Shown here: one piece after another, positions 21,626 to 56,058 of the stretch
Numbering within the stretch: position 1 is the first letter of the stretch
Layout: each line of letters opens with the position of its first letter
DNA from: a virus
Length of the DNA: 64,000 nt
Virus record (IMG/VR): IMGVR_UViG_3300025652_000047
Location: 14,948 to 78,947 of that record
Reading direction: 5' to 3' (one strand)
Translations under genes and position numbers: made by a program
Notes under the pieces: model-generated
Databases searched by the model: none
What the model was told of the DNA's origin: nothing
The model's input: only the letters and a program-made list of their open reading frames with translations

Positions 21626-21887
21626 TGAATTAGATAAAACATATGGGGAAAGGATATATGGAGTATCTTATGATGTACCCCCAGATGATATAGTATCTGA
21701 GATTAAATACAATACTGCTAAGTTAGCTGACTCATGGGCTGACATAATGGAAAGTTCTACTTTAGATATGAAAGACCAAGATATGGATGCTCAAGCAAAC
21801 ACTATGGTTAAAGTAGATTATATAATTAGGGCTTTAGAAAAGTTAGAAGAGTGTAGTTTTTTAGCAGTAAAATCACAGTATATATGA
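21618..21887 (+). CDS. Helical-hairpin protein, Acb2/Tad1-like candidate
   Basis: TYGERIYGVSYD...DIVSEIK...ALEKLEECSFLAVKS resembles the G-x-x-FNPS...MWAVKA hairpin proteins. Confidence 0.4.
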   Translation: MSDELDKTYGERIYGVSYDVPPDDIVSEIKYNTAKLADSWADIMESSTLDMKDQDMDAQANTMVKVDYIIRALEKLEECSFLAVKSQYI

Positions 21888-22171
21888 AAGAAATAGAGTT
21901 GGCTGGAGCTAAATGGTGTGTACCATGTAAGAATACTAAAGATAATATATCTAAAGTAGCTTATCAAATGGGTGCAAATATGACTTACCATGACTTAGGA
22001 GCTAAAGAACATCTACATAGAAACCTAGGAGATTTAAAAGATAGAGGATATATTATGGGTAATTTAGTAGGTATACCTATGTTTTTTGTAGATAAAAAGC
22101 AGATACCAGGTCCTACAAGTTTAGAAATGTCAGACATATATATTTGGATTACAGACAATTATAGTACTTAA
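21884..22171 (+). CDS. Thioredoxin/glutaredoxin-like protein
   Basis: WCVPC active site and cis-Pro motif GIPMF. Confidence 0.8.
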   Translation: MKEIELAGAKWCVPCKNTKDNISKVAYQMGANMTYHDLGAKEHLHRNLGDLKDRGYIMGNLVGIPMFFVDKKQIPGPTSLEMSDIYIWITDNYST

Positions 22172-22368: not shown

Positions 22369-25300
22369 ATGAAAGAATATAAACATTGGAATTGTGGGCA
22401 GCCTGACTGGATAAAGATAGATAATATAAAAGAATTTAATCTAGATGAGGTAAAGATATTCCACCCACAAGATCCTAGATATGTAGAGTATTGGAAGCAA
22501 GAGAAGAAGTACTGTATAGAAGGCAGGTGGGAAAGACAATTTGGAGGATGGATGCATATGCCAGGTTGTTTATATTTCTATGGTAAGTTTGGTATAATTG
22601 TAGATACAGACAAGTTTACAAAAGTAACTGAAAAAATTAAACCCCTAATCCAGGACTTAGAGTTTGAACAAGCTTTTATGTTTTGGGAAGCTAGGGGTTT
22701 TTCTGGGTATATAGATGACGATGAATATACCTCAGATAACATGTGGTTCAAATTCAATGAGAAAGGATTACCTACCACAGAAGAGATAGAGAAAATGGGA
22801 GATTCCCAAAGAACTGCAGTTCTTAACCTTATAAATAATAATGGTAATTTAAAGGAATATCTAACACCAAGAAAGAATTTAAGAAGAATTGCAGAGAAGC
22901 CTTTAGGTAGACCTTTGTTTCAAAATGATGCAAAGAATAAAGATACTATGGGTTGTCATGCTAAAGATAGTAAATTTAGAATGTATGATGGTTCTGTTAA
23001 AGAAGTATTTGATATAAAAATTGGGGATGCTTTAATGGGTCCCGATAGTTCTCCAAGAGAAGTTAATGAAATATTAACTGGAGAGAATGTTATGGTTAAA
23101 ATTACTCCTAAATATGGAGACGCTTTTAAAATAACTCCAAATCATATTCTTAGAGTTAGGGAAACTAATAAACATACAAATGAAAAATTAGAATATGATT
23201 TACCTGTTTGGGAATATTTAAACAAATCAGATTCTAAAAAATCATTTATAGAAATAATAGATAGAAATAAAATTGAATATCCTGAAGTACCTTTAGTTTT
23301 AGACCCTTACTTTATAGGACTATGGTTAGGAGATGGGTTTAAAAGAGAGAAATTAATATGTATTAATCAAGGTAAAGATAAAGAAATTTTAAATTGGTTA
23401 TTAGAATATTGTAACTCTAAAGATAATTTGTCATATACTACTTCCGTATCTAAAAACGGTTTATCAAATGGTTTTACAACTAGATTTAGATTAACAGATT
23501 CTAATTTATCAGGTAAAGGAAATTATTGGGCTAAAACTTTTAGAAATAACAAACACATACCTAATGAGTATCTTATTAATAGTTTAGATAATAGATTAAA
23601 ATTATTAGCAGGGTATATTGATTCTGATGGATGTTACGAAAAAAAATCAAATAGATATACAATTACGTCTGTAGATTTAGATTTATTAACCCAAACGCAA
23701 GAGTTAGCAAGATCCTGTGGATTTAGAGCAGAGATAAATAAACCTAGTAAAACTGGTATTACTGATTCTTTAAAATATAACTTAAGAATTATAGGAGATA
23801 TTAATTCTATTCCAGTGAAATTAAGTTATAAAAAAGCAACAGGAATTAGAGAAAAATTCCATAGAAATACATTTACAACTCAAGTATTACCTCCTGAAAA
23901 GTTCTATGGAGTAGAAGTTGATAAAGATCATTTGTATATGCTTGCTGATGGTAACAAAGATCACAACAGTAGGGGTGGAGGTAAGAGTTTCTTTGAAGCT
24001 GTTGCAGTCCAACTATATACTTTAACTTTTGATGGGGCTACAGAGTATATTATAGATCAAGTACAAAAGGTTGAGACTTGTATAGGTTCAGGAGATACTG
24101 ATAAGTCAGGAGAACTTGTACAGAAAGTAGTAGATGCAATGAATGAGTTTGCTATTAACCCTAAGCTAGGAGCATGGGGACAACAGGGAGACTCTGACTG
24201 GACTCCTAATCCTTTTTATAGGGATATGAATGGACCAACTAACGCAGGTAACAAGCAAAAAGGAGGTTGGGTACATAAGTACGAGAAGAAGATTAATGGT
24301 AGATGGGTAGATGGATTTGGAACAGGAACAAGAATGTTTCATGTATCTTACTCTTCAAATAAGAAAGCAGGAGCAGAAGCAGGAGCTGGAGGTAGATATA
24401 ATGTATCTACAGTAGAGGAAAAAGGTTTAACTATATTACTTATAATGTTGTGGAACTCAAATAGAGCCACAGTAATGAGAAATGGAGTTCAATTTGGAGT
24501 ACAATCTTTCTTAGGAACATCTGGTAATGCAGAACTAGTATTACCTTCAAAAGAGATGTTTACTACTCCTCATGAATTTAACCTAGTAGCTTATCCTGAT
24601 GTATGGGAAGGCACTGGAGATCTAGGATTCTTTATACCTGCGTATATGACGTATAGGCAATTTAAAGATGTAAATGGAAATACAGATGTTAAAGCAGCGA
24701 GAGAGCATTGGTTAAAAGGGTATTTAGCAGCAGGAGAATCTGCAAACCCTAAGACTCTTAGGATGTACTGTATGAATTATCCTGATATACCATCTCATAT
24801 GTGGGTAACAGATGCTCAGTATCTTTTACCTTATGAAGAAGCTATAGATAGAGAGAGGCATTTAATGGATAAGAAGTTATACCAAACCATAGGTACTGCT
24901 ATAGATTTAAGATGGGATACTTCAAAACAGAATGGAGTTACTTATGATATAGTACATAATCCACAGCCTTTCTATGATTTTCCAATTAGGAAGGATATGG
25001 AAAGGATGGATGGAGAAATAATGATGTATCAGACTCCACAAGAGATTAGAGGAGTTGTACCTAATGATATGTATTTCTTTGTACATGATCCATATGTATC
25101 AGATAACCAAGAAGACGGGGCTTCATTAGGGGTAACCTATGGATTTTTAAATCCTAAATATTCAGTAACACATGATGGAAGTCAATTAGTATGTTCATAT
25201 ATAGGAAAGCCAAAAGGAGGAAAAAAAGCATATTATCAAAATTTAGAGAAGTTATTAGCTTTCTACGGCAATCCCTTTAGGGGACTAGCATATGAAGCAA

Positions 25301-25764
25301 ACAGAGGAGAGTACTGTAGGTCTTATTTCGAGAAGAAAGGGAAACTACATTTACTAGCTTTAAGACCACAGCATGCAAAGGGAGATGGCATATACGAAAA
25401 AAATGTTACTCAATTTGGATATATGGTTGGAGCTAGAGGAGCAATAGGTAAATTAACTATGGTAGATGATACTAATGATTTTTTATTATCAGATGTAGTT
25501 AGGAGTAATGGTACAAATAAATTAATTGAGACTATACCTTGTATATTTTTAATTAGACAAATAGCACAGTTTACATTGAATGGTAACTTTGATGCAGTAT
25601 CATCTTTAATTTTAGTACCTACATTTATTTCAGAACAAGAGTCCTATATGACTCAAATTAGAAAACAAAAAGAAACAAACAGATTACAGTTTTTATCAAC
25701 AAATAGCGCAATACATGACAAGAATAATAGACACAAAGGAAAAGGTATTAACAGGCTTATCTAA
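22369..25764 (+). CDS. terL: Terminase large subunit (intein-containing; about 793 aa after splicing)
   Basis: Spliced Walker A region TMG|SRGGGKS; VEE Walker B; GTSG; nuclease motifs HDPY, YEAN and NFDAVS; crAss-like size and position. Confidence 0.9.
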   Translation: MKEYKHWNCGQPDWIKIDNIKEFNLDEVKIFHPQDPRYVEYWKQEKKYCIEGRWERQFGGWMHMPGCLYFYGKFGIIVDTDKFTKVTEKIKPLIQDLEFEQAFMFWEARGFSGYIDDDEYTSDNMWFKFNEKGLPTTEEIEKMGDSQRTAVLNLINNNGNLKEYLTPRKNLRRIAEKPLGRPLFQNDAKNKDTMGCHAKDSKFRMYDGSVKEVFDIKIGDALMGPDSSPREVNEILTGENVMVKITPKYGDAFKITPNHILRVRETNKHTNEKLEYDLPVWEYLNKSDSKKSFIEIIDRNKIEYPEVPLVLDPYFIGLWLGDGFKREKLICINQGKDKEILNWLLEYCNSKDNLSYTTSVSKNGLSNGFTTRFRLTDSNLSGKGNYWAKTFRNNKHIPNEYLINSLDNRLKLLAGYIDSDGCYEKKSNRYTITSVDLDLLTQTQELARSCGFRAEINKPSKTGITDSLKYNLRIIGDINSIPVKLSYKKATGIREKFHRNTFTTQVLPPEKFYGVEVDKDHLYMLADGNKDHNSRGGGKSFFEAVAVQLYTLTFDGATEYIIDQVQKVETCIGSGDTDKSGELVQKVVDAMNEFAINPKLGAWGQQGDSDWTPNPFYRDMNGPTNAGNKQKGGWVHKYEKKINGRWVDGFGTGTRMFHVSYSSNKKAGAEAGAGGRYNVSTVEEKGLTILLIMLWNSNRATVMRNGVQFGVQSFLGTSGNAELVLPSKEMFTTPHEFNLVAYPDVWEGTGDLGFFIPAYMTYRQFKDVNGNTDVKAAREHWLKGYLAAGESANPKTLRMYCMNYPDIPSHMWVTDAQYLLPYEEAIDRERHLMDKKLYQTIGTAIDLRWDTSKQNGVTYDIVHNPQPFYDFPIRKDMERMDGEIMMYQTPQEIRGVVPNDMYFFVHDPYVSDNQEDGASLGVTYGFLNPKYSVTHDGSQLVCSYIGKPKGGKKAYYQNLEKLLAFYGNPFRGLAYEANRGEYCRSYFEKKGKLHLLALRPQHAKGDGIYEKNVTQFGYMVGARGAIGKLTMVDDTNDFLLSDVVRSNGTNKLIETIPCIFLIRQIAQFTLNGNFDAVSSLILVPTFISEQESYMTQIRKQKETNRLQFLSTNSAIHDKNNRHKGKGINRLI
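22954..23967 (+). mobile_element. Intein with LAGLIDADG homing endonuclease (338 aa)
   Basis: Starts CHAKDSKFRMYDG and ends DHN|S; block B TPNH; LAGLIDADG motifs FIGLWLGDG and LLAGYIDSDG. Confidence 0.92.
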
Positions 25765-27124
25765 AGCTGCAGATGTAGTAGCCTCCACAATGGGAGCACA
25801 TGGTAAGTATGTACTTATAAACAAGAATGGAGAATCTAGGTTTACAAAAGATGGAGTATCAGTAGCAGAAGAAATTATACTAAGAGATCCTGTAGAAAAT
25901 ATAGGTGCACAGTTAGTTATTAATTCTGCTAAAAAAACAGTAGAAGACTGTGGGGATGGTACAACTGCAACTTCAGTATTACTACGAGCAATGGCTAATA
26001 GAGATATTCCTACTAATACAAGGGAGTATGTATCTAAATTAAAGGAAGATATAGAAACAGTTATTTCCAAAGTAGAGTCAAGTTCTAAAGAGTTAAAGAC
26101 TCTAGATGAATTAGAATCTATAGCCTCTACGTCTGGTAATTCTAAAGAAGTAGGACAAATACTTAAAACTGTATATGAGCAAGTAGGATTAGAGTCTAGA
26201 GTTACTTTAGAAGAAGACGAAGATTCTACAGAAACATATTATGAAGTTGCTAGAGGAGTTGAATTTATAGGTAATACAGGATATATTTCTGAGAGGTTTA
26301 AAAATCAACGTAATGGATACTGTATATTTGAGAATGCATTAGTTATTATAGATGAAAATAAAAGTTCAGACCATACTACATATACGGAAGCTATAAAAGC
26401 TGCCAATGCTATGGGAGCACCTTTAGTAATAATTTCACCTAATTTTTCTAATGCAGTAATATCTACTATAGCTGCAAATATGTCTAAGGGATTAAAAGCT
26501 TGTTTGGTAAGTGCTCCAGGTTGGGGTAGAAATCAAAAAGAGAATTTTAGAGATATAGAAGCTCTTAGAAATGAAAAGTGGCTAGTAGATAAAATAGTTA
26601 TTACTCCAGTAGCATTTACTATCTTCACAGAGAGCAAAGAAGGTATAGATGAGAGAATCAAAGAAGTAGAAGATTCATTCGATGGGTATATAGAAGACCA
26701 TGAAGTAAGATTTGCTGAAGTAAGAATAAATAAACTAAGAGGTTCCACTGCTATTATATATGTAGGAGGAATAACAGAAAAGAACAGACAAGAAGAGTTT
26801 GATAGAATAGAAGATGCTCTAGGAGCTGTACAGACAGCCATAGAGGGAGGATATGTAAAAGGAGGGGGTATCGCACTAGCTGAAGCCGCAAAAGGCTCTC
26901 AGATTGAGGATATATGTTTCTCTCCAGCATTCCAGATTAAAAGTAATGCAGAGTTAGACCAGACTATTGAAGAAGTCAATGTGCTTACTAAGAACCCATG
27001 TAATCTTTTAAAAGAAGGTATTATAGATCCTACTCCAGTAGTAGTTCAATCCTTAAAGAATGCATTTGCATCTTATGAGTTACTTTTAAACACAAATTAT
27101 ATACTAAATAATGAGAGCATTTAA
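25715..27124 (+). CDS. groEL: GroEL-like chaperonin (469 aa)
   Basis: TMGAHG, TKDGVSVA, GDGTT, APGWG, DRIEDAL, GGGIAL, GIIDP. Confidence 0.9.
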   Translation: MTRIIDTKEKVLTGLSKAADVVASTMGAHGKYVLINKNGESRFTKDGVSVAEEIILRDPVENIGAQLVINSAKKTVEDCGDGTTATSVLLRAMANRDIPTNTREYVSKLKEDIETVISKVESSSKELKTLDELESIASTSGNSKEVGQILKTVYEQVGLESRVTLEEDEDSTETYYEVARGVEFIGNTGYISERFKNQRNGYCIFENALVIIDENKSSDHTTYTEAIKAANAMGAPLVIISPNFSNAVISTIAANMSKGLKACLVSAPGWGRNQKENFRDIEALRNEKWLVDKIVITPVAFTIFTESKEGIDERIKEVEDSFDGYIEDHEVRFAEVRINKLRGSTAIIYVGGITEKNRQEEFDRIEDALGAVQTAIEGGYVKGGGIALAEAAKGSQIEDICFSPAFQIKSNAELDQTIEEVNVLTKNPCNLLKEGIIDPTPVVVQSLKNAFASYELLLNTNYILNNESI

Positions 27125-43260: not shown

Positions 43261-43486
43261 TATAATAGATAGTAAAGTAAATGCAATAAAGGCTGCTAAG
43301 TTCCTTATGGACTGTGGTTACGATGATAGTGAGTATATAGACAATTGGTTAAAAAATTCTGAATGTCCAGAACTTGCTTGTAAGATCATACTAGTAGATC
43401 CTTTATGTTCTACAACTTCAAAAAGTTGTATTACAATAAAGAATAAAATTAAAGTAACAGAAAAATCAAAGATTTGTAATGATTAA
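43241..43486 (+). CDS. Small Cys-rich structural protein
   Basis: 81 aa, GTG start, overlaps both neighbours. Confidence 0.55.
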   Translation: MKTVTANIIDSKVNAIKAAKFLMDCGYDDSEYIDNWLKNSECPELACKIILVDPLCSTTSKSCITIKNKIKVTEKSKICND

Positions 43487-46400
43487 GATAACAAAAGAAT
43501 TTACTTTAGAAAATGTAGTGGGAGAATTCACATATGAGTGGGTACTCCCTGATTGCATTACTCTAATTTCTAGTGTAGTAGTAGATACTACAATAACAGC
43601 AACTTTTGATTTCTGCGATAATAACTGCTTATTAGATTCTAATCTAATAGGCTTAACTATTAAAAGTAGTGATGGATGTATAACAGAAATAGAAAGCATC
43701 TTTAATAACGTCTGTAAGGACTTTGCATTTACACAAGGAGGTATAGTCCCACTAGAAGACTGTGACGGCTGTACAATAGCTTATAAAGCACCTGTCAACG
43801 ATATTAATGGAGTTTATAACTGGACTTATGATGAAGATATCTTTACAGCATCATTATTGGGTAATAGAATATACTTAACGTATAAAGACAATATAGAAGT
43901 TACAGTTACTTCTACTCCATTATCAGTAGTAGTAAATAATGAATATGGATGTACATTAGAAGACACCCTACCTTTACCTATATGTTCATATGAAAGTTTA
44001 AAGTTTGACTTTGAACTAGTATGTTCAGGAGATAGAGATGGTAACTTTGCATATGTAACTCCAAAATTAACACCTTTAAATAGTCCTTGTGGTTTAGAAC
44101 TAGATTATAGAACTACTACAATATTGTCTGTATTAAATATAGACTCTTCGTACCTTACTTTAAGTACAGGAGCTGATTATGTTAAAGTTATATTAGATGG
44201 AATAAGCCCTAATAGTACTATAGTAGTAGAGTTACAAACAAAAGATTGTACAGGATTCCCTTACATATATACTTTATGTTTAGCACCTAGACCTTGTTCT
44301 GATGTTCCTAACATAAATAACTTTGAACATACTTTTGGGTGTGAAGAATGTGCAGATACAACTAAATTTAGACCCGTAAACTCTAGTAGAGAGGAAGATT
44401 GCAGCTCTAATTTAAGTATCAACTTAGAAGATTTAATAGAGGGAGATATAGACTGGTCTACATTTACGTTTGTACCTAGAACAGGACAAACATTAAACGG
44501 ATCTACTTCTCTTACTACACCACATGGTGACGCTAATTTAGATATAAACAGAAATGTATTATTTACATATACTGGAGGATTAGTTAATACTGAAGTAGTT
44601 GAATATAGAATAGAAATAAACGGAGTAGAAACCTTTGGAGTATTAAACTTTAAAGGAACCAGATGTGGAGATACTCCAGTAGCAATAGATTTAGAAGTTT
44701 GTGTACTATCAGATAGCCAAACAGACTATATTGATATAACCGCAAATGATTCTGGAGATATAGCAGAGCTTATAATTGTAGAATATCCTCAAGTACAGAC
44801 TTTAGTAAATGGATTTAATGTTAAGTTCATTCCTAATGGGTATATTGGGACAACTGTATTGAAATATAGAGTAAAGAGTTCTACAGGTGTAGAGTCAAAT
44901 ATAGCTAGAGTTGCTATTACTTCAATAAATGCAGATATAACTACTACAGATTTATCAGTATGTCTAGGAGATATACTCGATCTTAATACTTTAGTAGATG
45001 ATAATACTGGAATGCCTTGGTCATTTGTAGGGTTTACTACAGAAGTATCAGATATTCCAGGAGATTTAGATAGTTCTACGTTCAGCGTAGGAGATGTTAT
45101 AAGTAATCCTGCAATTACATTATCAGAAGCAGGTATTTTTACTTTCCAATATGGTGAAATAGGTACATGTAATGCATATACTACAGTCAATGTAGAAGTA
45201 ATAGATGATAATGCACAAGTAGATTTAACTGTTGCAGTATGTAATAGTACTGCAGATTCTTATAATCTCAATGAGTTAACTAATTTAACTGATGGTACAT
45301 GGACTGATTTAAATCAAACTAATGTATTAGACGTAGATGGAGTTACAGTATACTCTACAATACCAACAGGAGCCTATATGTTTAGGTATAATAAAGTAAG
45401 TACAGGTATATATAATACAACAACTTGTAACAATACTTTTATATTAACTTTAGATATGCAATCAGAACTAGAAGACGTTGCTCCTATTTGTTTAAGCTAT
45501 TGTTCTTATGGTCCAAATCCTGAATTAGATTTAGATTGTAAAACCAATCCTATAGTACTTAATTCAGAACCTACTACAGGATGTGAATATGATTTATATG
45601 AGCAAGTAGGGTTACCTACAGGTAGTAAAATACAGCTATTAAATGCACCATTTACACCTATATATTTACATATTAATGGTATGGATCTACTGTTAACAAC
45701 AGGGTCTTTCTTACCAGAAGGGCAAGCTATATGGGCTAACGGAGATGCACCTTTAGGTACATATGTATTTAGGGCTTTCTACGGAGATGCTTGTACAAAA
45801 GAAGTTGATTTTGAAGTAAACATATATGCTGCATCTTGTCAGTTAGAAAGTGATACTATTACAAAATGTAACTCTGATAATGCATTCAATATATTCACTG
45901 AATTAACAGGAAGTTCTAGTTGTTTAGATAATAATATAACAGGATTAACACTAATATCTGAAAACCTAACAGGTACAGGTACAGTTGATTACAATTTAAC
46001 AACAGGAGACTTTACTCCAGGAGCACCAGGACAATGGGTGTTTGGATTTACTTCTACAGTAATTGGAACTGATGGTACTTGCTCTGCATGTAATGTAGAT
46101 GCTACTATAACAGTAATAGTTACTCCAATACCAGGACCAGGAGTTCCGCAACCAGGTACAGTCTGTAATGATGGTACTTGTGTAGTAGATGTATACCCTG
46201 ACATGTTTATAGCTAATCAAACTATATTAGGTACATTCTGCTTTGACGGATTTGCAACAACTCCATCAGGAACTCCTATAGCAGGAGGATGGGGAGGTAT
46301 AGAGCCTACATTATTACCTGGAGATATATCAGGTCCTGCATATACTTTTGAAGGAGCACTAGAAGGTTTCTATTTCTTTAGTAATAAAGTAGAAGATGCC

Positions 46401-46811
46401 AATGGTTGTTCTTCAACTTCACAAACAATAGTTCAAGTAACTAGTGCAGGTTCAGCAGGAACAGCAGATGTAATTGCAGATGTTTGTGAATTAACTCCAG
46501 CATGTTATACTCTACTAGATCACTTAACAGGAGAAGGTACAGGTGGAACATGGACAACAGGAGGTACTTACACAACAGCATTTATTAGTTGTGACCCAGG
46601 ATTCTTTGTATTAGGAGATACAGCAACATTTAATACAGAAGGTATGCCAGCAGGCACATATACCTTTACATATACAGTAACTACTCCAAACAACTTATAT
46701 CCTATATATGATGGGTGTATATCTTGTACAGGTAGCACAGCAACAATTTCAATAACAATAACAGCAGCAATACCAGCAGGGGGAGGAAGTTCTCAGATGG
46801 TATGTGCATAA
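43479..46811 (+). CDS. Large Cys-rich Ig-like repeat fibre protein (base subunit)
   Basis: Repeats of VC...L..L...G.W...G.Y.F.Y...C; ends AGGGSSQMVCA. Confidence 0.75.
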   Translation: MIKITKEFTLENVVGEFTYEWVLPDCITLISSVVVDTTITATFDFCDNNCLLDSNLIGLTIKSSDGCITEIESIFNNVCKDFAFTQGGIVPLEDCDGCTIAYKAPVNDINGVYNWTYDEDIFTASLLGNRIYLTYKDNIEVTVTSTPLSVVVNNEYGCTLEDTLPLPICSYESLKFDFELVCSGDRDGNFAYVTPKLTPLNSPCGLELDYRTTTILSVLNIDSSYLTLSTGADYVKVILDGISPNSTIVVELQTKDCTGFPYIYTLCLAPRPCSDVPNINNFEHTFGCEECADTTKFRPVNSSREEDCSSNLSINLEDLIEGDIDWSTFTFVPRTGQTLNGSTSLTTPHGDANLDINRNVLFTYTGGLVNTEVVEYRIEINGVETFGVLNFKGTRCGDTPVAIDLEVCVLSDSQTDYIDITANDSGDIAELIIVEYPQVQTLVNGFNVKFIPNGYIGTTVLKYRVKSSTGVESNIARVAITSINADITTTDLSVCLGDILDLNTLVDDNTGMPWSFVGFTTEVSDIPGDLDSSTFSVGDVISNPAITLSEAGIFTFQYGEIGTCNAYTTVNVEVIDDNAQVDLTVAVCNSTADSYNLNELTNLTDGTWTDLNQTNVLDVDGVTVYSTIPTGAYMFRYNKVSTGIYNTTTCNNTFILTLDMQSELEDVAPICLSYCSYGPNPELDLDCKTNPIVLNSEPTTGCEYDLYEQVGLPTGSKIQLLNAPFTPIYLHINGMDLLLTTGSFLPEGQAIWANGDAPLGTYVFRAFYGDACTKEVDFEVNIYAASCQLESDTITKCNSDNAFNIFTELTGSSSCLDNNITGLTLISENLTGTGTVDYNLTTGDFTPGAPGQWVFGFTSTVIGTDGTCSACNVDATITVIVTPIPGPGVPQPGTVCNDGTCVVDVYPDMFIANQTILGTFCFDGFATTPSGTPIAGGWGGIEPTLLPGDISGPAYTFEGALEGFYFFSNKVEDANGCSSTSQTIVQVTSAGSAGTADVIADVCELTPACYTLLDHLTGEGTGGTWTTGGTYTTAFISCDPGFFVLGDTATFNTEGMPAGTYTFTYTVTTPNNLYPIYDGCISCTGSTATISITITAAIPAGGGSSQMVCA

Positions 46812-46824
46812 AACAAATAAAAAA

Positions 46825-47592
46825 ATGGCTTGTACAATACTATTAAGCGACCAATTAAATTTACCTAGTCCAGGGGGTTATTATATATACCTGGGATATA
46901 ATGTAGAATCCCAGATTAATGCATCTATAAACACTCCAGGGGACAATGGGGATTTGTGTTTTGGAATAACAGACCCTTTAACTGACAGTACTCCTAGTTT
47001 ATATGCGGATGTAGGACCACTAAATGGATTAGACGCTAATGCTTTTATCTCTGGAACCCCTAGCCCTACAATAGATTTTACAGGAGTAACTCCAGGGTTC
47101 TACGGCTTTATGTACATAGTAGGAGATGATAGTGATAATGGAATAATAGATGGAATAGAATGTGGAGATGTAGAATGCTTTGAAATAGAAGTAATAGCAG
47201 GTCCTTCTGCAATGTCAACATGTAATGAAGGAGCAGATGATCCTTGTCTTTCTATATGTGAATCTAATTTACCTACAGATCCTGTTATAGATTTAACTTC
47301 GTTTTTTGATGTAGACCCTGCTGTTGCAGGAGCCCCTGGATTTATTGCAGGAGGAAGTTGGGAACATACTGGGGGAGCATTTGTTACTTTAAACGGCAAT
47401 GATGCTACTATTTTAGCAGGAGCACCTATAGGTACTATTGTATTTACATATACAATTCTACCTACTGAGTTAGGCGCAGTTCACCCTCCAGATGGAGATT
47501 GTGATGATTGTACTTCAATAGTAACAGTAACTATACAAATAACTGAACAACTATCAGCAGGTGAAGGAAGTTCATTAGCAGTTTGTAACTAA
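46825..47592 (+). CDS. Two-domain Cys-rich Ig-like subunit (candidate polymerising shaft subunit)
   Basis: Start MACTILL at 46825 after an A-rich initiation region; ends AGEGSSLAVCN. Confidence 0.75.
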   Translation: MACTILLSDQLNLPSPGGYYIYLGYNVESQINASINTPGDNGDLCFGITDPLTDSTPSLYADVGPLNGLDANAFISGTPSPTIDFTGVTPGFYGFMYIVGDDSDNGIIDGIECGDVECFEIEVIAGPSAMSTCNEGADDPCLSICESNLPTDPVIDLTSFFDVDPAVAGAPGFIAGGSWEHTGGAFVTLNGNDATILAGAPIGTIVFTYTILPTELGAVHPPDGDCDDCTSIVTVTIQITEQLSAGEGSSLAVCN

Positions 47593-47603
47593 AATATAAA
47601 TAG

Positions 47604-49211
47604 ATGGCGTTTTGTTTAAATACACTTTTAGATCCTGGATACATACCTAATGGCACTTGGCTACAGGTATCTAATCCAGCAGGTGCAACTATGTATACTC
47701 CAGTAGGAGCAGATGGTTGTATAGAAGATTGGAGTATAGAAAGTGATAAGTTAACAGTTACAGGAGAATCTTGTCCTGTACCTGGAACTTATACATTTAG
47801 TTATGATATACCTGGATTAGACTGTATAGACCCTGCATTTGTAGAAGTAGATATAGTAGATAGTCCAACTGAAATAGCGACCCCTGATACATTATATGTA
47901 TGTAGGGATGGTTCAGAAGTTGTAGGAGCTGATCATACTTTTATGTTAGCAAATGGATCTACTATAACTAATTACAGTATAGATGCTTTCTTTAGACAAT
48001 GTGATGGGGTATCTATTATAGATTATTCATTATCAGCAACTACAGGTGGCAGTGGTATTGCAGATTTTGAAAATTCATTTACACTAATTTGGAATAATAT
48101 AGATAATATTGTAAATTCAAACTTTGGGTTTACACATACAACTCAAAGTTGTACTACAATAAATATAAATACTTTTGGAGATTTAAATTGTGGAGACCAG
48201 CTAGATATTAAAATGATAGTAAGTCCTGATATAGAGGGTTACAATAGTACCTTAGTTACTTGTGATACAGTAAATGTATATGATAATATGCCAACTGGGT
48301 TAGTTACGTTTCTAAATAATATAACCGTTGGACCTCTATCTCCTATAGGTGGAGAAGCATTATTTAATATAGATACAGTAGGATATAATGGATGTACTTC
48401 AACAGGGCAAATAAGAATACAATCTAGTACAGACAATGGTGTAACATGGAAAAATATTTTAATTTCTGATACTGTTGATCCTTTATTAAATCCTACTATA
48501 CAATATAAAGTTATATGGATACCAGAAGGAGTACCTGCAGGATTTGATTGTGGAGGTATTTCTATTCTTACGATAGATACGGATAATTGTTGTGATGATA
48601 CTCCAGGAATAGAATGCCAAGAAGCATTAGTAGAAGAGGCAGGAACTGATTGGGAAATAACTATAAATGGAGTTAGTGAAGTTTATTATAGTCCTTCTAG
48701 TTTTGTACTTAATGATGCTCTTAATCAACAAGCATTACTAGATTATTTAAATACTATAGCATGTAATACGGTTACAATTTCAGCAAATGTAACTACGGGA
48801 ATATTACAAATATTTAACTTTAACGGTACAATAGATAGTATAACAAGTTCTTCAGGAAATATAGGAGTATTTACTTCTCCTTGTTGTACTGAAGTTACAG
48901 ATATATCTTTCTTGAGTGGTAGTTTTATTACTGATACAATACCTTGTTCAACTGCAGATATAGCACTAGTTAATACTGGGAATGAAAATCTTATTTTAGA
49001 AGCTAATCAAGATGTAACAGAATGGGAGTTAACTGGAATAGATGGAACTGTTACAGAAGTGTCAACCACGGCTACTACAATAGAAATTGAATTAGCAGAT
49101 TCAGGATCATATGACTGTGATGCTTTTACTAGGCAATATAGATTTAATGTAAAGGCTACTGCTTGTGGTGTAGACTATACCGAAGAGGTTATTATACGTC
49201 TCCAATTTTAA
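47604..49211 (+). CDS. Cys-rich Ig-like repeat protein (candidate tip subunit)
   Basis: Starts mid-repeat (MAFCLNTLLD...GTW...GTYTFSY); ends without a VC strand. Confidence 0.7.
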   Translation: MAFCLNTLLDPGYIPNGTWLQVSNPAGATMYTPVGADGCIEDWSIESDKLTVTGESCPVPGTYTFSYDIPGLDCIDPAFVEVDIVDSPTEIATPDTLYVCRDGSEVVGADHTFMLANGSTITNYSIDAFFRQCDGVSIIDYSLSATTGGSGIADFENSFTLIWNNIDNIVNSNFGFTHTTQSCTTININTFGDLNCGDQLDIKMIVSPDIEGYNSTLVTCDTVNVYDNMPTGLVTFLNNITVGPLSPIGGEALFNIDTVGYNGCTSTGQIRIQSSTDNGVTWKNILISDTVDPLLNPTIQYKVIWIPEGVPAGFDCGGISILTIDTDNCCDDTPGIECQEALVEEAGTDWEITINGVSEVYYSPSSFVLNDALNQQALLDYLNTIACNTVTISANVTTGILQIFNFNGTIDSITSSSGNIGVFTSPCCTEVTDISFLSGSFITDTIPCSTADIALVNTGNENLILEANQDVTEWELTGIDGTVTEVSTTATTIEIELADSGSYDCDAFTRQYRFNVKATACGVDYTEEVIIRLQF

Positions 49212-49228: not shown

Positions 49229-50581
49229 ATGAGTAGAATATATATAAAAGCAGACAGCCCAGAAAATCCACCTATTCCTACAGGGGCAGACGGTGCTTCT
49301 GCTTATGATGTAGCAGTAAGTAATGGTTTTGTTGGGAGTGAAGCAGTTTGGTTACTTTCATTAAAAGGGGAGCCTGGAGACAATGGAATAAGTATACAAG
49401 GAGCAAGTGGTGTAGATGGTGTAGATGGTGTAGATGGTGCAGATGGTACTGGGCTAATGATATTAGGGTCAGATACTATAGCAAATATCTTATTGAAATC
49501 AGGCACTGCTGGAGATATATGGATATCTACAACGGCAGGAACTGACGACAATAGTGATCCTGTTGCAATAGGTGATGGTTTAGTATACGATGGAGTATCA
49601 TGGGTTACAATTGGAGCTATTAAAGGTGAAAAAGGAGATCAAGGTATACAGGGAGCACAGGGAGCACAAGGTGACCCAGGTATAGATGGTATAGATGGTA
49701 TAGATGGTATAGATGGTATAGATGGTATAGATGCTACCCCGTATGATGATGCTTACTCTAAAGTAGCAGAAGTTAATGTTGGTGGGATTTTAATATCAGA
49801 AACTGCAGGTCCAACTATTAAAGATGCTTTAGACCAGATATTAGGACCTCCATTAATACTTCCAACCTATACAACAAATAGTTTAACTACAGGAGGATTT
49901 GGAACTCAAACCCTAGAAGTAGGAACTTTATTTTCTGACACTTTAACAGCTTCTTATAATAAAGGAGTTATTACATCTAAAGATGGAAGTCCAAATATAG
50001 ATTTAACAGGTGCAGTTACAGCATTACGTTTTACAGGTACTGGAATAGACTTGGGGACTGGGGTAATTTCTACAGGAATTTTACTAGGTGCAGTAAATCA
50101 ATGGACTGCGGAAGTAGATTATGCAATAGGAACAGGCTCCTATTTTGATAGTCTTGGTAATGCAGCTACTAATTTAGATGCTTTTAGAGTTGCGGATACT
50201 ATAAGTAAAACAAGTAGTACAGTCACAGGGCTATATAAATATTGGATATTTAAAGGAGCATTGGGATTGTCTCCATCTACAAGTGCGCCTATTAGAGCAT
50301 TAATAGATGACGGCTTTTCTCAAAATAAAACATTTGATATTACAATTATCGCAGGAGAAAGAGAGGTCAGCATTTATTTACCACAAAGTATGAATTTAAT
50401 TGAAGTTTTATTAGTGGAATCTTCAAATGCAAACTTAACTAGTTTATTTATTTCAAGTGTAGTAACTATAAATGATGCAGGAGGAGTCCCAGAAAATTAC
50501 AATAAGTTTACTCAAGACATAGGTGGAATAGGATATGCATCAGATGTAACATATAGAATAACAATAAATAACGCAATATAA
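49229..50581 (+). CDS. Collagen-like fibre protein
   Basis: GASAYDVAV.NGFVGSE..WL.SLKG motif and Gly-X-Y tracts; ATG at 49229 preferred. Confidence 0.8.
   Translation: MSRIYIKADSPENPPIPTGADGASAYDVAVSNGFVGSEAVWLLSLKGEPGDNGISIQGASGVDGVDGVDGADGTGLMILGSDTIANILLKSGTAGDIWISTTAGTDDNSDPVAIGDGLVYDGVSWVTIGAIKGEKGDQGIQGAQGAQGDPGIDGIDGIDGIDGIDGIDATPYDDAYSKVAEVNVGGILISETAGPTIKDALDQILGPPLILPTYTTNSLTTGGFGTQTLEVGTLFSDTLTASYNKGVITSKDGSPNIDLTGAVTALRFTGTGIDLGTGVISTGILLGAVNQWTAEVDYAIGTGSYFDSLGNAATNLDAFRVADTISKTSSTVTGLYKYWIFKGALGLSPSTSAPIRALIDDGFSQNKTFDITIIAGEREVSIYLPQSMNLIEVLLVESSNANLTSLFISSVVTINDAGGVPENYNKFTQDIGGIGYASDVTYRITINNAI
49679..49732 (+). repeat. Perfect 9-bp tandem repeat (GGTATAGAT)x6 encoding (GID)6
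   Basis: Read directly; a related (GGTGTAGAT)x3 lies at 49409-49435. Confidence 0.9.
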
Positions 50582-53500
50582 TGGCAAATTTTAATTTACC
50601 TTTTGGGATAAGAGTTTCTAATGATGATCCAGTAGATGGAGATAGATATTTAAGAGCTAGTGAGGCAGAAATGTTTGCATTAGTGACAAATGGAAGGGCT
50701 AAAGAGGGGCAGCAGTGCTATAGAACGGATGAGAGTACGTTATACATATTAAAAGGAACTACTAATAATGATTGGGTTGTAGAAGTAAGTAGTTATGATG
50801 ATACGGCTATCCAAGCAGAAGTAGATCTTAATACAGCTAAAATATCATATACAGATGCCACAGATGTTGGTTTAAATACAGCCCACAGAAGTATTACTAC
50901 TGGCAACCCTCATTCTGTAACCAAGACAGAGATAGGATTAAGTAACGTACCTAATATTGACACAACAAACGCAAGTAATATAACTAGCGGTACACTACCA
51001 AGTTCTGTAATACCCCCAGTTGCTTTAACTAGTGTTCAAGTAGCCATATCTCAAGTAGCAATGTTAGCACTAACAACCGAAGAGGGTGATGTTGTTGTAA
51101 GGAGTGACGAGAATAAGTCCTATATACGCAACGATGGTATTACTGGTACTATGACAGACTTTACAGAATTACAAACCCCGACGGATAGTGTATTGAGTGT
51201 TAATGGAGAAACTGGTACTGTTGTACTAACTACGACAAATGTTGCTGAGGGTACTAATGAATATTACACAGAAGCTAAGGTATCAGCAAATACATCAGTA
51301 GCTGCAAACACAGCAAAAACTGGTATTACAGCACAGCAAGCTACGGATATCACAACTAATACAGCGAAGGTTGGAATTACAACTCAACAATCTAATGATA
51401 TAATTGCAAATAATGCAAAAGTTACTAATGTAAATACAGATTTATCATTAGGTCCAGTATCTGCTACTGCTATGGACGTAAATTCAAGTGATGGTAATAA
51501 TGTAACACTTACTGAAGCTACTCCTACTTTTGCAGGACTACTTAATGCTACAGATAAAGGTAAGCTTAATAATACTTCAGGAACTAACACAGGAGATCAA
51601 GATATAAGTGGGATAGCAACCAATGCAAGTGATATAACTACACTTCAGGGAGACTCCCATACGCACAATAATAAGACTCAATTAGATACTATTGATGCAG
51701 CAGATATTACTAACTTATCAAATTTATCTGGAATAAATACAGGAGACCAGATTATACCTACGTCAGGAGTTGACTTTGATCCAGTAGGAACAGATAACTC
51801 AGATAACAATGCGGTAAATACTTTATATAGTGGCTTGCAATCAGAGGTTGATTTAAATACTGCAAAAGTCACAAACGTAGATCATCCATTAGTTGAAACG
51901 GCAGTTCCAGTAGGTGCGGTATTTACTGATACTGATACGGTGTACGATGATACTGCAATACAATCAGAAGTTGATTTAAATACGGCAAAGGTATCTAATG
52001 TAGACCATCCGTTGGTAGAAACAGCCGTACCATCTGGTGCAGTCTTTACCGATACTATCTATGATGATTCAGCAGTTTTGAAAGATTCAGATGCATTAAG
52101 TGTTGTTACTGGGGTTAATAAATTAATGACCCAAAGTGATGTAGCTGGGTTAGGTGGTGGAGATATGTTAGCGGCTACTTATGACCCTATCATCAATGCG
52201 AATACTGCGAAGGTCACAAATGTAGACCACCCACTTGTAGAGACAGCTGTACCAGTTGGAGCATTGTTCACAGATACAGATACGGTATACGATGATACTG
52301 CAATCCAAGCAGAGGTAGATTTAAACACAGCTAAAGTAGGTATAACAACTGCTCAATCTAATGAGATAGCTGCTAATACATTAAAGGAAACTAACATTGC
52401 TCACCCACTTGTTGAAACAGCAGTGCCGATTGGAGCAGTATTTACTGATACTGTGTACGATGATACTGCTATTCAAGCTGAAGTAGATTTGAACACCGCA
52501 AAAATTAGTTTTGATAGTACATCTTCTACAAGATTAGCGAACACAAGTGGAACCAATACTGGAGACCAAACTTTACCAATCAGCGGTGTAGATTTTGATC
52601 CTGTTGGTACAGATAATTCAGACAACAATGCTGTGAACTCATTATATAGTGGCTTACAAGCAGAAGTAGATTTAAATACAGCTAAAGTATCTAACGTAGA
52701 TCACCCACTAGTAGAGACAGCAGTTCCGATAGGAGCAGTATTCACAGATACAGTATATGACTCAACTGCGGTTGACGCTCACATTGCTAATGTAACAACA
52801 AATCCACATTCAGTTGATAAAGCTGATGTAGGATTATCTAATGTTGATAACACATCTGATGCTAATAAACCAGTATCAACAGCAACACAAACAGAACTTG
52901 ATTTAAAGGCTTCTAACGTAGATTTAAACGCACATAGTGGCAATACATCAAATGTTCACCAAGTGAGCTTAGAACAAGCGAGAACGCAATCTAACGTATT
53001 GTCAGGTGACATTAACTTTAACAATAATAGTATTGATAACTTAACTGATTTAAACTTCACTGATGGTGGACCAATTAATTGGAATACTAAATATCATACT
53101 ATTGATGTACCAACTGGTGATGGTTCTATTGTAAAAGTAGGAATGGATACATTGTTTGATATTCATAATGCTACGGGTGATATATTATTAAAAGGTACAG
53201 TAGTTTATCCTAACGGAACTTCAACTCTTGGAATATCTAACGTTAGCAAAGCCATAGCTGACACACACGTAACTATTTCATCACAGTTAGGTGTTATAGC
53301 ATATGACGTATTACCTGGTGCTGATGGACACGTAATGGTGCAAGGAGTTCTTGACCCAATTGATACAAGTCTTTTATCAGAAGGTCCAGTATATTTATCT
53401 TCAACTGTTGCTGGTGAACTTACAAGTGTTAAGCCTGATTTCACAGATTATCATGTATTACTAGGAGTTGTTGATTCAAGTGCGGTATCAGGAGTAATAA

Positions 53501-56058
53501 CTATTGATATTGCATTCAACTTACAAAACACATTAACAAACTTTTGGAATGGTGTATTTAGAGAATCATTTAATTTCTTAATAACTTCTAATGGTACAAC
53601 TATTACTGGAACATTAACACCAGCAAGTGGTAACACTGATATGACAATGTTATTCAGCGATGGATTCTCATTATTAGATACTTCACCAAGTGCTACGGTT
53701 GTATTAACACCAGGTACAGATACAGTTCCTTTATTAAATTACATATACATACCAAGAGCTACAAAGGTTCTTACAGTAAGTACAGTTGGTTTCCCAGCGG
53801 AAGAACACATTAAAATTGGAACATCATTTTTACAAACAGCTGCAACAACACTTTCATTTAAAGCATTAAAGAATCATAATTTTAATGACCACGTTCAAGG
53901 TTCAGATGGACAAGGGCATTTAAGCCATATTACAGAGCGTTTAAGAACCTTCCCAGCTACTCATGAGTCAGGAACAGAAGCTTCTATAAGTGGATTGCCA
54001 ACCAACGCATATGTTACTGTAACATCGGGGGTAATTTACCAATTACATACCCAGATATTTGAAGCATCAGTGATGCCAACGGATAATATTCATATTGTAA
54101 ATCACTTTACAACTCCATATTTAAGAACAACTGATTTACTTACTCAATTAAATGATGCTAATGGAGATTCATTTAACAACACAAGTTTTTCACTTGTGGT
54201 TTGGGGAGTTGCTAATAAAAGTGGTGAAGGATCACACGTAATGTGTAACTTACCTATTGGTTCTTATTCTAAGAATACGCCTGATTTGGCAGTTGCTGAT
54301 AGCTTAGGTTATTCAGTATATACAATTCCAAAAGATTTTAGAGGAGCTGCTTTCCTTATCGCTAGATTTACATTCGTAAATAATAACGGTACTTGGTCAA
54401 TATTCGATACACAAGACCTTAGAGGTAAATTAGCGAACACAAGTGCTGGGGGAGTAGTTGGTGGTGGAGCTGGTGTTACTACCGTATTAGGTTTAACTGA
54501 TACACCTTCAACATTTATAGGTAACTCATTAGATTTAGTTAGAGTTAATGTAGGTGAAACTGCATTAGAGTTCACACCTGATAACACATTAAAAACAACA
54601 GATGCATTATCAACCGTAACTGCTATAAACAAACTAATGACACAAGATGATATTGCTGGTTTAGGTGATGGAGATATGTCGAAAGCTACTTATGATACTA
54701 ATAGTAATAACATCGTTGATAACGCTGAATTAGTTAATGGATTAACAGTTTTAACAGCAGTTCCATCAGGAGCTTTATTCACCGATACTATTTATAACGA
54801 TACAGCAATTCAAGCAGAAGTAGATTTGAACACAGCTAAGACTGGGATTACTACAACTCAAGCTTCAGATATTATAACAAACAATGCTAAAGTAGGGATA
54901 ACAACTCAGCAAGCTAGTGACATTACTACTAATAATGCTAAAATAGGAGTTACTACAGAATTAAAACCTGCTGATATAGATACTTTAGCAGAAGTAAACG
55001 CAATAATAACAGATGCAACATTAATTGACACTGGTGATTCTAGGTTGTCAGACGCTAGAACACCAACAGCGCATAATCATACTGCTTCTGAAGTAACAGA
55101 CTTTGACACAGAAGTATCTAATAATGCTTCCGTAACAGCTAATACTGCAAAAGTCTCCTTTGTTGATGCACCTAGTAATGGTAGCGAATACGTAAGAAAA
55201 GATGCAGCATGGGCAGTATCTACAGGAACTATTAATAACTATACATCTATAGCAGCACCACAATTATTTAATCCAAGTGCTGGAGAAGTAACTGCTAATA
55301 CGGGAGACTATACATTAGCTAACACTAATAGTGTAGCTTTTGTTTCTATTAATGGTCAGGTTGTAGATGACAGTGAATATTCATTAGCGGGTTCAACTCT
55401 TACAGTTACACCAGACAATGGATTTAGCAGTACTGCAGATGAATTATTGGTATTTCAACATACATTTACAGTTGCAGGAACTGATGTTCAAGCAGCAGTA
55501 GCATTAAATACAGCGAAGGTATCATTTGTTGATGCTCCTAGCGATGGGAGTGAGTATGTCAGGAAGGATGCAGCGTGGTCAGTAGCTAGTGGTGGTGGCG
55601 GTGTGACTATTTACGAGACATATGTAGATGGTTACATAGACCCTAATTTTGATTATTACATGGGAATATTGGTGTCTGGACCTGGGAATGAATATGGAAG
55701 AGCAAATACACTGGGCGCAATTTCTAGTATGTCAGACTTAGCATTTGAACTGTGTAGACCCAATTTACAGGTGTATCAAAACCAAACTTTAAATTCTATT
55801 ACTATTTACACAGGACAGAATGGCAATAATTTAACAGCGGTAGCAGTCGTAGTTGTAAAAATAAATGCAGATGGCACTTTATCAAAGAGAGTTACTTTGG
55901 CAGAAGTAGTAAGGACTTATATTGAAAATGACCAGTATACTATAACTACATTCAATGATACGGCATTACTAGATGGAGAAGCAGTTTATGTGTTCCCAAA
56001 GGTAAGTACTGGAACGAATGTGCATTTCTCAACAACAATAAACACAACATTATTATGA
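50581..56058 (+). CDS. Long tail fibre protein (1825 aa)
   Basis: Recurrent EVDLNTAK, HPLVETAVP.GA.FTDT, NPHSV.K..VGLSNV, SVNGETG and DAPS.GSEYVRKD modules. Confidence 0.8.
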   Translation: MANFNLPFGIRVSNDDPVDGDRYLRASEAEMFALVTNGRAKEGQQCYRTDESTLYILKGTTNNDWVVEVSSYDDTAIQAEVDLNTAKISYTDATDVGLNTAHRSITTGNPHSVTKTEIGLSNVPNIDTTNASNITSGTLPSSVIPPVALTSVQVAISQVAMLALTTEEGDVVVRSDENKSYIRNDGITGTMTDFTELQTPTDSVLSVNGETGTVVLTTTNVAEGTNEYYTEAKVSANTSVAANTAKTGITAQQATDITTNTAKVGITTQQSNDIIANNAKVTNVNTDLSLGPVSATAMDVNSSDGNNVTLTEATPTFAGLLNATDKGKLNNTSGTNTGDQDISGIATNASDITTLQGDSHTHNNKTQLDTIDAADITNLSNLSGINTGDQIIPTSGVDFDPVGTDNSDNNAVNTLYSGLQSEVDLNTAKVTNVDHPLVETAVPVGAVFTDTDTVYDDTAIQSEVDLNTAKVSNVDHPLVETAVPSGAVFTDTIYDDSAVLKDSDALSVVTGVNKLMTQSDVAGLGGGDMLAATYDPIINANTAKVTNVDHPLVETAVPVGALFTDTDTVYDDTAIQAEVDLNTAKVGITTAQSNEIAANTLKETNIAHPLVETAVPIGAVFTDTVYDDTAIQAEVDLNTAKISFDSTSSTRLANTSGTNTGDQTLPISGVDFDPVGTDNSDNNAVNSLYSGLQAEVDLNTAKVSNVDHPLVETAVPIGAVFTDTVYDSTAVDAHIANVTTNPHSVDKADVGLSNVDNTSDANKPVSTATQTELDLKASNVDLNAHSGNTSNVHQVSLEQARTQSNVLSGDINFNNNSIDNLTDLNFTDGGPINWNTKYHTIDVPTGDGSIVKVGMDTLFDIHNATGDILLKGTVVYPNGTSTLGISNVSKAIADTHVTISSQLGVIAYDVLPGADGHVMVQGVLDPIDTSLLSEGPVYLSSTVAGELTSVKPDFTDYHVLLGVVDSSAVSGVITIDIAFNLQNTLTNFWNGVFRESFNFLITSNGTTITGTLTPASGNTDMTMLFSDGFSLLDTSPSATVVLTPGTDTVPLLNYIYIPRATKVLTVSTVGFPAEEHIKIGTSFLQTAATTLSFKALKNHNFNDHVQGSDGQGHLSHITERLRTFPATHESGTEASISGLPTNAYVTVTSGVIYQLHTQIFEASVMPTDNIHIVNHFTTPYLRTTDLLTQLNDANGDSFNNTSFSLVVWGVANKSGEGSHVMCNLPIGSYSKNTPDLAVADSLGYSVYTIPKDFRGAAFLIARFTFVNNNGTWSIFDTQDLRGKLANTSAGGVVGGGAGVTTVLGLTDTPSTFIGNSLDLVRVNVGETALEFTPDNTLKTTDALSTVTAINKLMTQDDIAGLGDGDMSKATYDTNSNNIVDNAELVNGLTVLTAVPSGALFTDTIYNDTAIQAEVDLNTAKTGITTTQASDIITNNAKVGITTQQASDITTNNAKIGVTTELKPADIDTLAEVNAIITDATLIDTGDSRLSDARTPTAHNHTASEVTDFDTEVSNNASVTANTAKVSFVDAPSNGSEYVRKDAAWAVSTGTINNYTSIAAPQLFNPSAGEVTANTGDYTLANTNSVAFVSINGQVVDDSEYSLAGSTLTVTPDNGFSSTADELLVFQHTFTVAGTDVQAAVALNTAKVSFVDAPSDGSEYVRKDAAWSVASGGGGVTIYETYVDGYIDPNFDYYMGILVSGPGNEYGRANTLGAISSMSDLAFELCRPNLQVYQNQTLNSITIYTGQNGNNLTAVAVVVVKINADGTLSKRVTLAEVVRTYIENDQYTITTFNDTALLDGEAVYVFPKVSTGTNVHFSTTINTTLL

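Follow-up and report, generated by a model that had tools for sequence, protein, structure and literature searches.

The question raised by this locus is why one Ig-like repeat should run through three consecutive genes of a virus and be cut at the same place between the first and the second gene and again between the second and the third. The genes, here called A, B and C, lie on the IMG/VR viral contig IMGVR_UViG_3300025652_000047 (78,947 bp, completeness estimate 71%), of which a stretch of 64,000 nt (positions 14,948 to 78,947 of the record), called the window below, was analysed; positions are those of the whole stretch unless residue numbers or a relative's label is given. Our answer is that the products of A, B and C on balance probably form one fibre, in which they would be joined end to end by trans-completion of a split PKD-like domain whose donor strand sits at the C-terminus. 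The observation beneath this answer is real and conserved, and it defines a large unannotated family: the split is conserved, the strand that is cut off belongs evolutionarily to the following domain, and the C-terminal tail of B covaries with the B-type domain 1. What we infer beyond this is that the proteins dock physically and in the order A-B(n)-C; the copy number of B and any covalent lock (disulfide or metal) are likewise inferred. The features concerned are listed here, where "tail" stands for an AG....VC strand at a C-terminus and "head" for a protein start of the form M-A-(F)-C.

43479..46811, plus strand: gene A (1110 amino acids, aa), with a tail at its end and without an acceptor head
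44682..46772, plus strand: seven PKD-like/Ig_7-type repeats of A (residues ~402-1098), from the repeat hidden Markov model (HMM)
46773..46808, plus strand: tail of A, PAGGGSSQMVCA, an orphan first strand whose domain is not encoded in A
46812..46824, plus strand: A-B spacer of 13 nt, A-rich, holding a second in-frame stop of A's frame
46825..47592, plus strand: gene B (255 aa), with 10 cysteines including C3 and C254
46825..47193, plus strand: domain 1 of B (residues 1-123), with its MAC start at the A' position and without an AG..VC strand of its own
47194..47544, plus strand: internal AG..C strand and domain 2 of B (residues 124-240), with the covariation switch at residue ~124
47545..47589, plus strand: tail of B, EQLSAGEGSSLAVCN, in which AG..S.AVCN is invariant across the close family
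47593..47603, plus strand: B-C spacer of 11 nt, A-rich, the last 3 nt of which are TAG in C's frame
47604..49211, plus strand: gene C (535 aa), with the head MAFCLNTLLDPGY and no tail, which would make it acceptor-only and the distal segment
47604..47873, plus strand: head domain of C (residues 1-90), one clear copy of the repeat minus its first strand (HMM match 14-100, E=2.7e-14)

The C-terminus of A reads ...AGGGSSQMVCA; B starts MACTILLSDQL and ends ...AGEGSSLAVCN; C starts MAFCLNTLLD and has no AG....VC tail. A and B therefore each end in an orphan AG....VC strand plus one residue, and the next cysteine stands two to three residues after the start of B (MAC) and of C (MAFC). Within the window the tail motif is found only in A and B, and the head motif only in B and C. 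Both breaks fall within the 3-5-residue loop between the strand cysteine and the next cysteine, whose internal counterparts read VC-NDGT-C and VC-ELTPA-C. The chance that two random breaks of a ~105-residue repeat would both hit this loop is roughly (5/105)^2, or ~0.002. When tail and head are joined on paper the internal loop is restored: when VC-N is followed by MA-C the cysteines are separated by three residues, the number found in the fused form VC-EGF-C, and when it is followed by MAF-C by four, the number in VC-NDGT-C. The reading frames of A, B and C are 0, +1 and 0. A preliminary description of this locus had given the same open reading frames (ORFs), termini, A-rich spacers, frame changes, cysteine content of B and common register of the breaks, and all of these are as it had them. 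Its statement that the three genes are built from one repeat needs narrowing. Residues 927-1109 of A align to residues 55-254 of B (BLASTP, E=1e-7), and with the iterated repeat HMM seven units are recognised in A, at residues ~402-1110, two more in B and a single clear one in C (14-100); the statement holds for the C-terminal 700 aa of A, for all of B and for the first domain of C, and fails for the first 400 aa of A and for most of C. An atlas look-up with the N-terminal 400 aa of A gave only sub-threshold Ig/cadherin leads. There is also an in-frame GTG at 46804, overlapping the last codons of A, that would put seven extra residues before the MAC of B; as the homologs all begin at ATG, the ATG at 46825 is treated as the true start.

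The split is not peculiar to this contig. Among the relatives' loci compared (L002/3/4/6, L005, L007, L008 and L009), the same register is found in every locus fetched (L002/L006, L005, L007, L008, L009), the spacers there being 11-99 nt long; AG.(G/A).S...C(x) is always the end of the upstream A-like gene, and the downstream gene, where present, starts MA(Q)FCL..LLDPGY. Four further A homologs and two further C homologs show it too. In L002 the equivalent of the A-B spacer measures 33 nt and in L005 13 nt. The B-C spacer of L002 (L002 11030-11128) has 99 nt and carries a clear inverted repeat, a terminator-like hairpin; this is a hint that B can be transcribed or regulated apart from C. The A homologs (1090-1163 aa) all have the tail, with A1100, G1101 and C1109 invariant in seven of them; the C homologs (436-710 aa) are variable beyond the first ~330 residues; and the ATG start is kept in all homologs of B and C. 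Artefact, decay or recoding, by which one gene would have been broken by mutation or assembly error or would be read through by frameshifting or ribosomal bypass, would agree with the short A-rich spacers and with the frame change at both junctions. We consider it highly improbable, since the split is kept at 34-50% protein identity despite spacers as different as 13, 33 and 99 nt, extra in-frame stops lie inside the spacers, the spacer of L002 contains a hairpin, and the ATG is conserved in B and C homologs. Decay or assembly error is ruled out by the conserved split register itself. A bypass or frameshift of the gene-60 type was also considered and rejected: at junction 1 a GCA take-off and a GCT landing are imaginable, and at junction 2 a TAG stands directly before the ATG of C and there is no matching codon.

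Relatives of B form a family of their own. Nine homologs of 235-262 aa (34-50% identity) span B end to end and all finish AG..S[LI]AVCN. A length-independent HMM search against 1.84 billion representatives returned 133 proteins at E<=1e-3, among them ~23 full-length B clusters (at 50% identity) and ~25 further two-domain proteins of 200-230 aa, all of which begin MAC, MSC or MPC and end ..AG....VCN. Taken together, ~60 stand-alone B-like proteins, 25-50% identical, keep the M-A-C head and the ...VCN tail. In 45 diverse B-like proteins with a mean column identity of 24%, C113, C145, C229, G246 and C254 are invariant and M1, C3, L7, G18, G91, F95, Y97 and C226 are conserved to at least 90%. Within this very diverse family conservation is highest in the head and tail motifs. 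These data support a split that is conserved and programmed and a B that represents a stand-alone family of ~60 proteins with near-invariant head and tail, and they bear out the earlier proposal that the split is programmed rather than decayed. Profile scans of viral contigs with B, P0113 and P0105 (two members of the wider family) gave one further lineage or nothing, and cultured phage genomes, searched at both the DNA and the protein level, yielded no relative of A, B or C.

The repeat itself has cellular homologs. The B profile matches giant proteins of 1000-5600 aa over 10-46 stretches each, which carry CHU_C (PF13585), Ig_7 (PF19081) and K319L-like PKD (PF22352) domains, and the best profile match of the repeat in the PDB is to the PKD domains of AAVR (E=0.0024). 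A scan of genome contigs returned only flavobacterial adhesin repeats (Leeuwenhoekiella and Tenacibaculum; Flavobacteriaceae). Phage and cellular repeats have the motifs AG....C, LxxL, GGxW and GxYxFxY in common. Judged from these profiles and motifs, the phage repeat is a homolog of the PKD-like/Ig_7 repeat of adhesins that marine Flavobacteriia export through their type IX secretion system (T9SS), and marine Flavobacteriia are the probable hosts. The giant T9SS (CHU_C) adhesins differ in that their repeats are continuous in one chain, have two cysteines per repeat and are followed by a T9SS sorting domain at the end, whereas the phage proteins are cut between strands A and A', lack CHU_C and have extra cysteines. 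In the cellular repeats the spacing from the FG cysteine to the strand cysteine is tight (24-28 residues), and for their three cysteine columns all 48 discordant cases of presence and absence are alignment-edge gaps. A, B and C themselves score below the Pfam thresholds; no CHU_C/T9SS sorting domain was matched in them in the Pfam search, and B and C start directly with MAC and MAFC, with no leader.

Whether the AG..VC strand belongs to the domain before it or to the one after it decides how the tails of A and B are to be read. The cellular proteins, in which nothing is cut, were used for this: 365 unique repeat units (effective number of sequences, Neff, 311) from 59 cellular homologs, each unit running from the FG cysteine to the end of the next domain, were subjected to mean-field direct-coupling analysis (DCA). 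The top couplings are sensible sandwich contacts (52-80, 42-80, 55-81, 38-97 and 70-99). Columns of the strand and linker couple to the following domain at high rank among 5151 pairs (20-93 at rank 15, 21-42 at 19, 23-95 at 39, 26-36 at 46, 21-80 at 50, 23-93 at 53 and 28-101 at 57), and their homologous counterparts in the preceding domain are weakly coupled (0.88 for 20-6, 0.19 for 23-8 and 0.29 for 28-14). A near-constant offset of ~73 suggests a parallel course for the strand and the following domain's G strand. By this coupling the AG..VC strand of the continuous cellular proteins is the first strand of the next domain, which had been the premise of the preliminary description.

A second line of evidence comes from the B family, in which covariation was calculated as mutual information with average product correction (APC) over 60 B-like proteins (Neff 45). 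Over residues 1-123 the sliding windows favour domain 1; from residue ~124, the beginning of the internal AG strand, they favour domain 2 instead, as far as residue 240. This switch acts as an internal positive control for the covariation windows and, together with the DCA, bears out the assignment of the orphan strand to the following domain. At the C-terminal tail (residues 244-255) the preference returns to domain 1. The share of pairs above the 97.5th percentile is 3.8% between tail and domain 1 and 1.2% between tail and domain 2, against 4.0% within domain 1 and 1.7% between the domains, and the mean covariation difference of the tail (+0.013) lies outside all domain-2 windows (maximum +0.003). 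The top tail pairs (E247-L13, S250-C118, S250-E112, E247-F92 and E247-I124) resemble the strand-to-core contacts of the cellular DCA. Natural fusions agree with this. P0113 is a B-B tandem with the junction VC-EGF-C; P0138 is a B whose tail runs on into a tip-like region; and P0085 has four domain-1-type domains, each with an AGT....C strand in cis before it, and a C-terminus reading ...TTCN. It follows from these three proteins that domain 1 normally owns an AG..C strand and that in B it is encoded without it.

The arrangement that we propose is thus the following. A, B and C would be separately encoded segments of one cysteine-rich Ig/PKD-like virion fibre. Each upstream protein would carry at its end the first strand (AG....VC) of a PKD-like domain, and the remainder of that split domain would be the N-terminal domain of the next protein, beginning M-A-(F)-C just past the loop that is cut. 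Once the proteins are folded, A would dock by its tail on domain 1 of B, and B by its tail on domain 1 of C or of another B; a whole domain would be rebuilt across two chains by beta-strand complementation, and a head-to-tail chain would result. The termini of the window proteins and of their homologs support the roles assigned earlier, in which A would be donor-only (base, proximal), B both acceptor and donor, and C acceptor-only (distal). On this reading the two-domain proteins of the B type would serve uncultured marine Bacteroidota phages widely as general spacer modules, each having a universal plug (...VCN) and a universal socket (MAC...). From the conservation of the split across many relatives an end-to-end plugging of the proteins is suggested, not proved.

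The main rival, which we think rather unlikely, is that the AG....VC(N) tail folds in cis onto its own last domain, with its cysteine pinned to the extra cysteine of the CxxC; the MAC heads would then be short N-termini with their cysteine in the role of the strand cysteine, and A, B and C would be independent Ig-like virion proteins or be joined by some other interface. Several results point in this direction and count against the joining of the three proteins through a split domain. An AlphaFold2 (AF2) model of B from a 10-sequence alignment was too poor for use (predicted local distance difference test, pLDDT, 58.8). The AF2 monomer from a 45-sequence alignment (pLDDT 85.8, predicted template modelling score, pTM, 0.78) has two Ig-like sandwich domains, with domain-1 strands at 4-6, 19-26, 91-99 and 115-123 and domain-2 strands from 142-145 through 231-240. 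Domain 1 folds in this model at pLDDT ~90 without a donor strand, and the tail is placed confidently (pLDDT 93 for residues 241-250, 84 for 251-255) as coil by DSSP, which suggests that it is docked somewhere on the monomer. The preliminary description had itself named two outcomes that would tell against its model, and each is seen in part: the first domain of B does fold alone in the prediction, and its C-terminus is given a definite place there, though without beta-strand form. Since the strand that is missing probably lies at an edge, the acceptor may be stable without it. The tail cysteine could pair in cis, as an all-intramolecular scheme closes neatly; the bookkeeping is exact in the window proteins and in the minimal B-like proteins, whose six cysteines are the head cysteine, the domain-1 FG cysteine, the domain-2 strand cysteine, the two of the domain-2 CxxC and the tail cysteine. 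The covariation in the B family, moreover, is based on a Neff of 45. A mirror-tree test does side with domain 1 as the partner of the tail (partial correlation of tail similarity 0.40 with domain 1, controlled for domain 2, against 0.13 with domain 2, controlled for domain 1); this is suggestive and not significant, the difference being above 0 in 94% of replicates with a bootstrap interval that includes 0. AF2 monomers, however, often satisfy inter-chain contacts within the chain, and the monomer result therefore weakens the split-domain model without refuting it. The covariation of the tail with its own domain 2 is below the between-domain background and that with domain 1 at the within-domain level; the tail keeps the motif of the internal strand, which by DCA packs on the next domain; and folding in cis leaves unexplained the complementary start register of every downstream protein as well as the fused forms. 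Fold searches with both models of B gave generic Ig-like matches only; domain 2 matches Rib, cadherin and the BIG2 domain of phi29 in this generic manner (Z 6.2-6.7, root-mean-square deviation 2.9-4.0 A over 84-95 residues). The two-domain model aligns with extended tandem Ig/cadherin pairs over 145-158 residues (4.6-6.5 A), and from this elongated geometry it is suggested that the tail of B could not reach domain 1 in cis.

The cysteines bear on the remaining alternatives. The domains that carry a tail (A domain 7 and B domain 2) always have one extra cysteine, three residues before the conserved FG cysteine, and in domain 1 of B and of C, the first domains that would act as acceptors, the cysteines are by themselves even in number. 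The total is even in 42 of 45 B-like proteins and of mixed parity in A-like (42-47 cysteines) and C-like proteins (16-31). Parity does not separate bonds in cis from bonds in trans, as symmetric intermolecular schemes would also close on the cysteine count. One could therefore think of end-to-end joining without strand insertion, through an inter-protein metal site or a disulfide-only staple made from the tail cysteine, the head cysteine and the CxxC. A conserved CxxC does stand beside an invariant tail cysteine and a near-invariant head cysteine, and the proteins are made in a reducing cytoplasm, where structural zinc sites are common. H220 (~47482-47484), six residues before the domain-2 CxxC, is invariant in the close B family, and with C226, C229 and C254 it could form a candidate metal site; it varies in the wider family. 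We regard this joining as improbable, for the tail residues other than cysteine are conserved too and covary with the core of domain 1 (L13, F92, E117 and I124), which suggests packing and not ligation alone. The full model of the preliminary description is a special case of split-domain joining, in which B would be a self-polymerising shaft of variable length, A its start and C its cap, with disulfides between the subunits, and we hold it to be possible and rather doubtful. In its favour are the covariation of the tail of B with B's own domain 1, the natural B-B fusion P0113, the conservation of head and tail above all other parts of the family, the even cysteine number, which is compatible with symmetric head/tail bonds, and a thioredoxin-like ORF with a WCVPC motif (21884-22171), which as such shows only that the phage carries a redox gene. 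Against it, A and B have each conserved a tail of their own kind (SSQMVC in A, S[LI]AVCN in B), which suggests that the partners are specific and the chain therefore fixed; there is a single B gene; intramolecular pairing fits the cysteine parity equally; and the head cysteine is missing in four relatives (L005, P0008, P0010 and P0016) that keep the invariant tail cysteine. A disulfide between head and tail therefore cannot be universal, and the lock at each junction that had been proposed, an inter-subunit disulfide, is a conjecture. For the proposed self-association of B the covariation and P0113 are suggestive. If it is right, and we say so only tentatively, a large clade of uncultured marine Bacteroidota phages would build pilus-like fibres in which B is polymerised by its C-terminal donor strand, primed by the base, capped by a receptor-binding tip and covalently fixed at each junction once in oxidising seawater. 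How long the fibre is and which tip it bears would in that case depend on expression level and gene swapping, not on one long gene.

Split-domain joining of A, B and C, as we prefer to read this locus, would be closest in mechanism to the type V pili (FimA/Mfa1), by analogy and with no relation in sequence, fold, compartment or activation. In both, a C-terminal strand of one subunit would replace the absent N-terminal strand in the next Ig-like domain, giving a head-to-tail chain with base, shaft and tip subunits. The host phylum (Bacteroidota) is likely the same, because the cellular homologs of the repeat are found in Flavobacteriaceae. The differences are several. There is no sequence or family relation (no FimA/Mfa match for A, B or C in Pfam or PHROGs), and the domain is PKD-like and not of the FimA fold. 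The phage proteins have neither signal peptide nor lipobox, B starting M-A-C at the domain itself, and their assembly would be cytoplasmic, in the virion. The socket of the pilin is opened by a protease, whereas that of the phage protein would be encoded open by a gene that starts after the strand. In chaperone-usher pili, too, a neighbour supplies the strand by which an incomplete Ig-like fold is made whole; there, however, the C-terminal G strand is missing and the donor is an N-terminal extension, so that the phage polarity would be reversed (C-terminal donor, truncated N-terminus), and a periplasmic chaperone and an usher are required. No chaperone or usher gene of that kind was found among the window proteins scanned (only some were scanned), and the only chaperone found is GroEL-like. 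In the long tail fibre of T4 (gp34-gp35-gp36-gp37) consecutive genes likewise encode consecutive fibre segments joined end to end; its segments are trimeric, use other interfaces and have neither a split domain nor a shared plug and socket motif. SpyTag/SpyCatcher (split CnaB2) also has a terminal strand parted from an Ig-like domain, which docks in trans and is then locked covalently, but it is engineered, uses an isopeptide bond and has another fold, while the phage split is natural and its covalent lock conjectured.

Full-text literature searches found no donor-strand assembly of phage fibres. If the joining proposed here is right, this would be the first virion fibre built by strand complementation of the pilus type, and it would explain a widespread family of small cysteine-rich "hypothetical" proteins in marine phage metagenomes. 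It would also give a simple rule for how tips could be swapped and fibre length changed, in that a suitable head and a suitable tail would be enough for any two of these genes to fit, and protein engineering would gain a plug and socket of natural origin. Should the docking prove wrong, the near-invariant termini still mark a functional element that is wholly missed by current annotation.

The surroundings of the three genes are those of a structural module. A, B and C lie on the same strand as, and downstream of, the genes for the terminase large subunit, a GroEL-like protein, the portal and the major head protein. Gene C is directly followed (49229-56058) by a collagen-like fibre gene and a gene for an 1825-aa fibre, both with tail-fibre PHROG matches. 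The collagen-like gene (within 49229-56058) matches Pfam Collagen and several tail-fibre PHROGs, and the 1825-aa fibre has long internal repeats. With head genes upstream and fibre genes downstream, A, B and C are placed in the tail/fibre part of the structural module, and from this position they are putative virion fibre proteins; Pfam and PHROGs, searched with each of the three, gave no match to any of them. Five consecutive genes between 39521 and 47592 have a cysteine in their last four residues: a 748-aa protein (...IKCTA), a 501-aa protein (...ENCNC), an 81-aa protein (...KICND), A and B. This pattern recurs in L002, and the 748-aa protein keeps a cysteine at position 7 in three lineages. 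Such terminal cysteines may be a more general feature of the fibre/baseplate module.

Farther upstream, the gene for the 469-aa GroEL-like chaperonin (25715-27124; phrog_5725, E=2e-78) is situated between the terminase and portal genes and could be relevant to the folding of large cysteine-rich fibre proteins. The thioredoxin/glutaredoxin-like ORF with the WCVPC motif, just upstream of the terminase gene, is 95 aa long and has no Pfam match at E<=0.01. The terminase large subunit (22369-25764, 1131 aa) is interrupted by an intein with a LAGLIDADG homing endonuclease: in Pfam, residues 196-271 match Hom_end_hint and residues 397-473 match LAGLIDADG_3 and Hom_end, and terminase PHROG matches flank the insertion.

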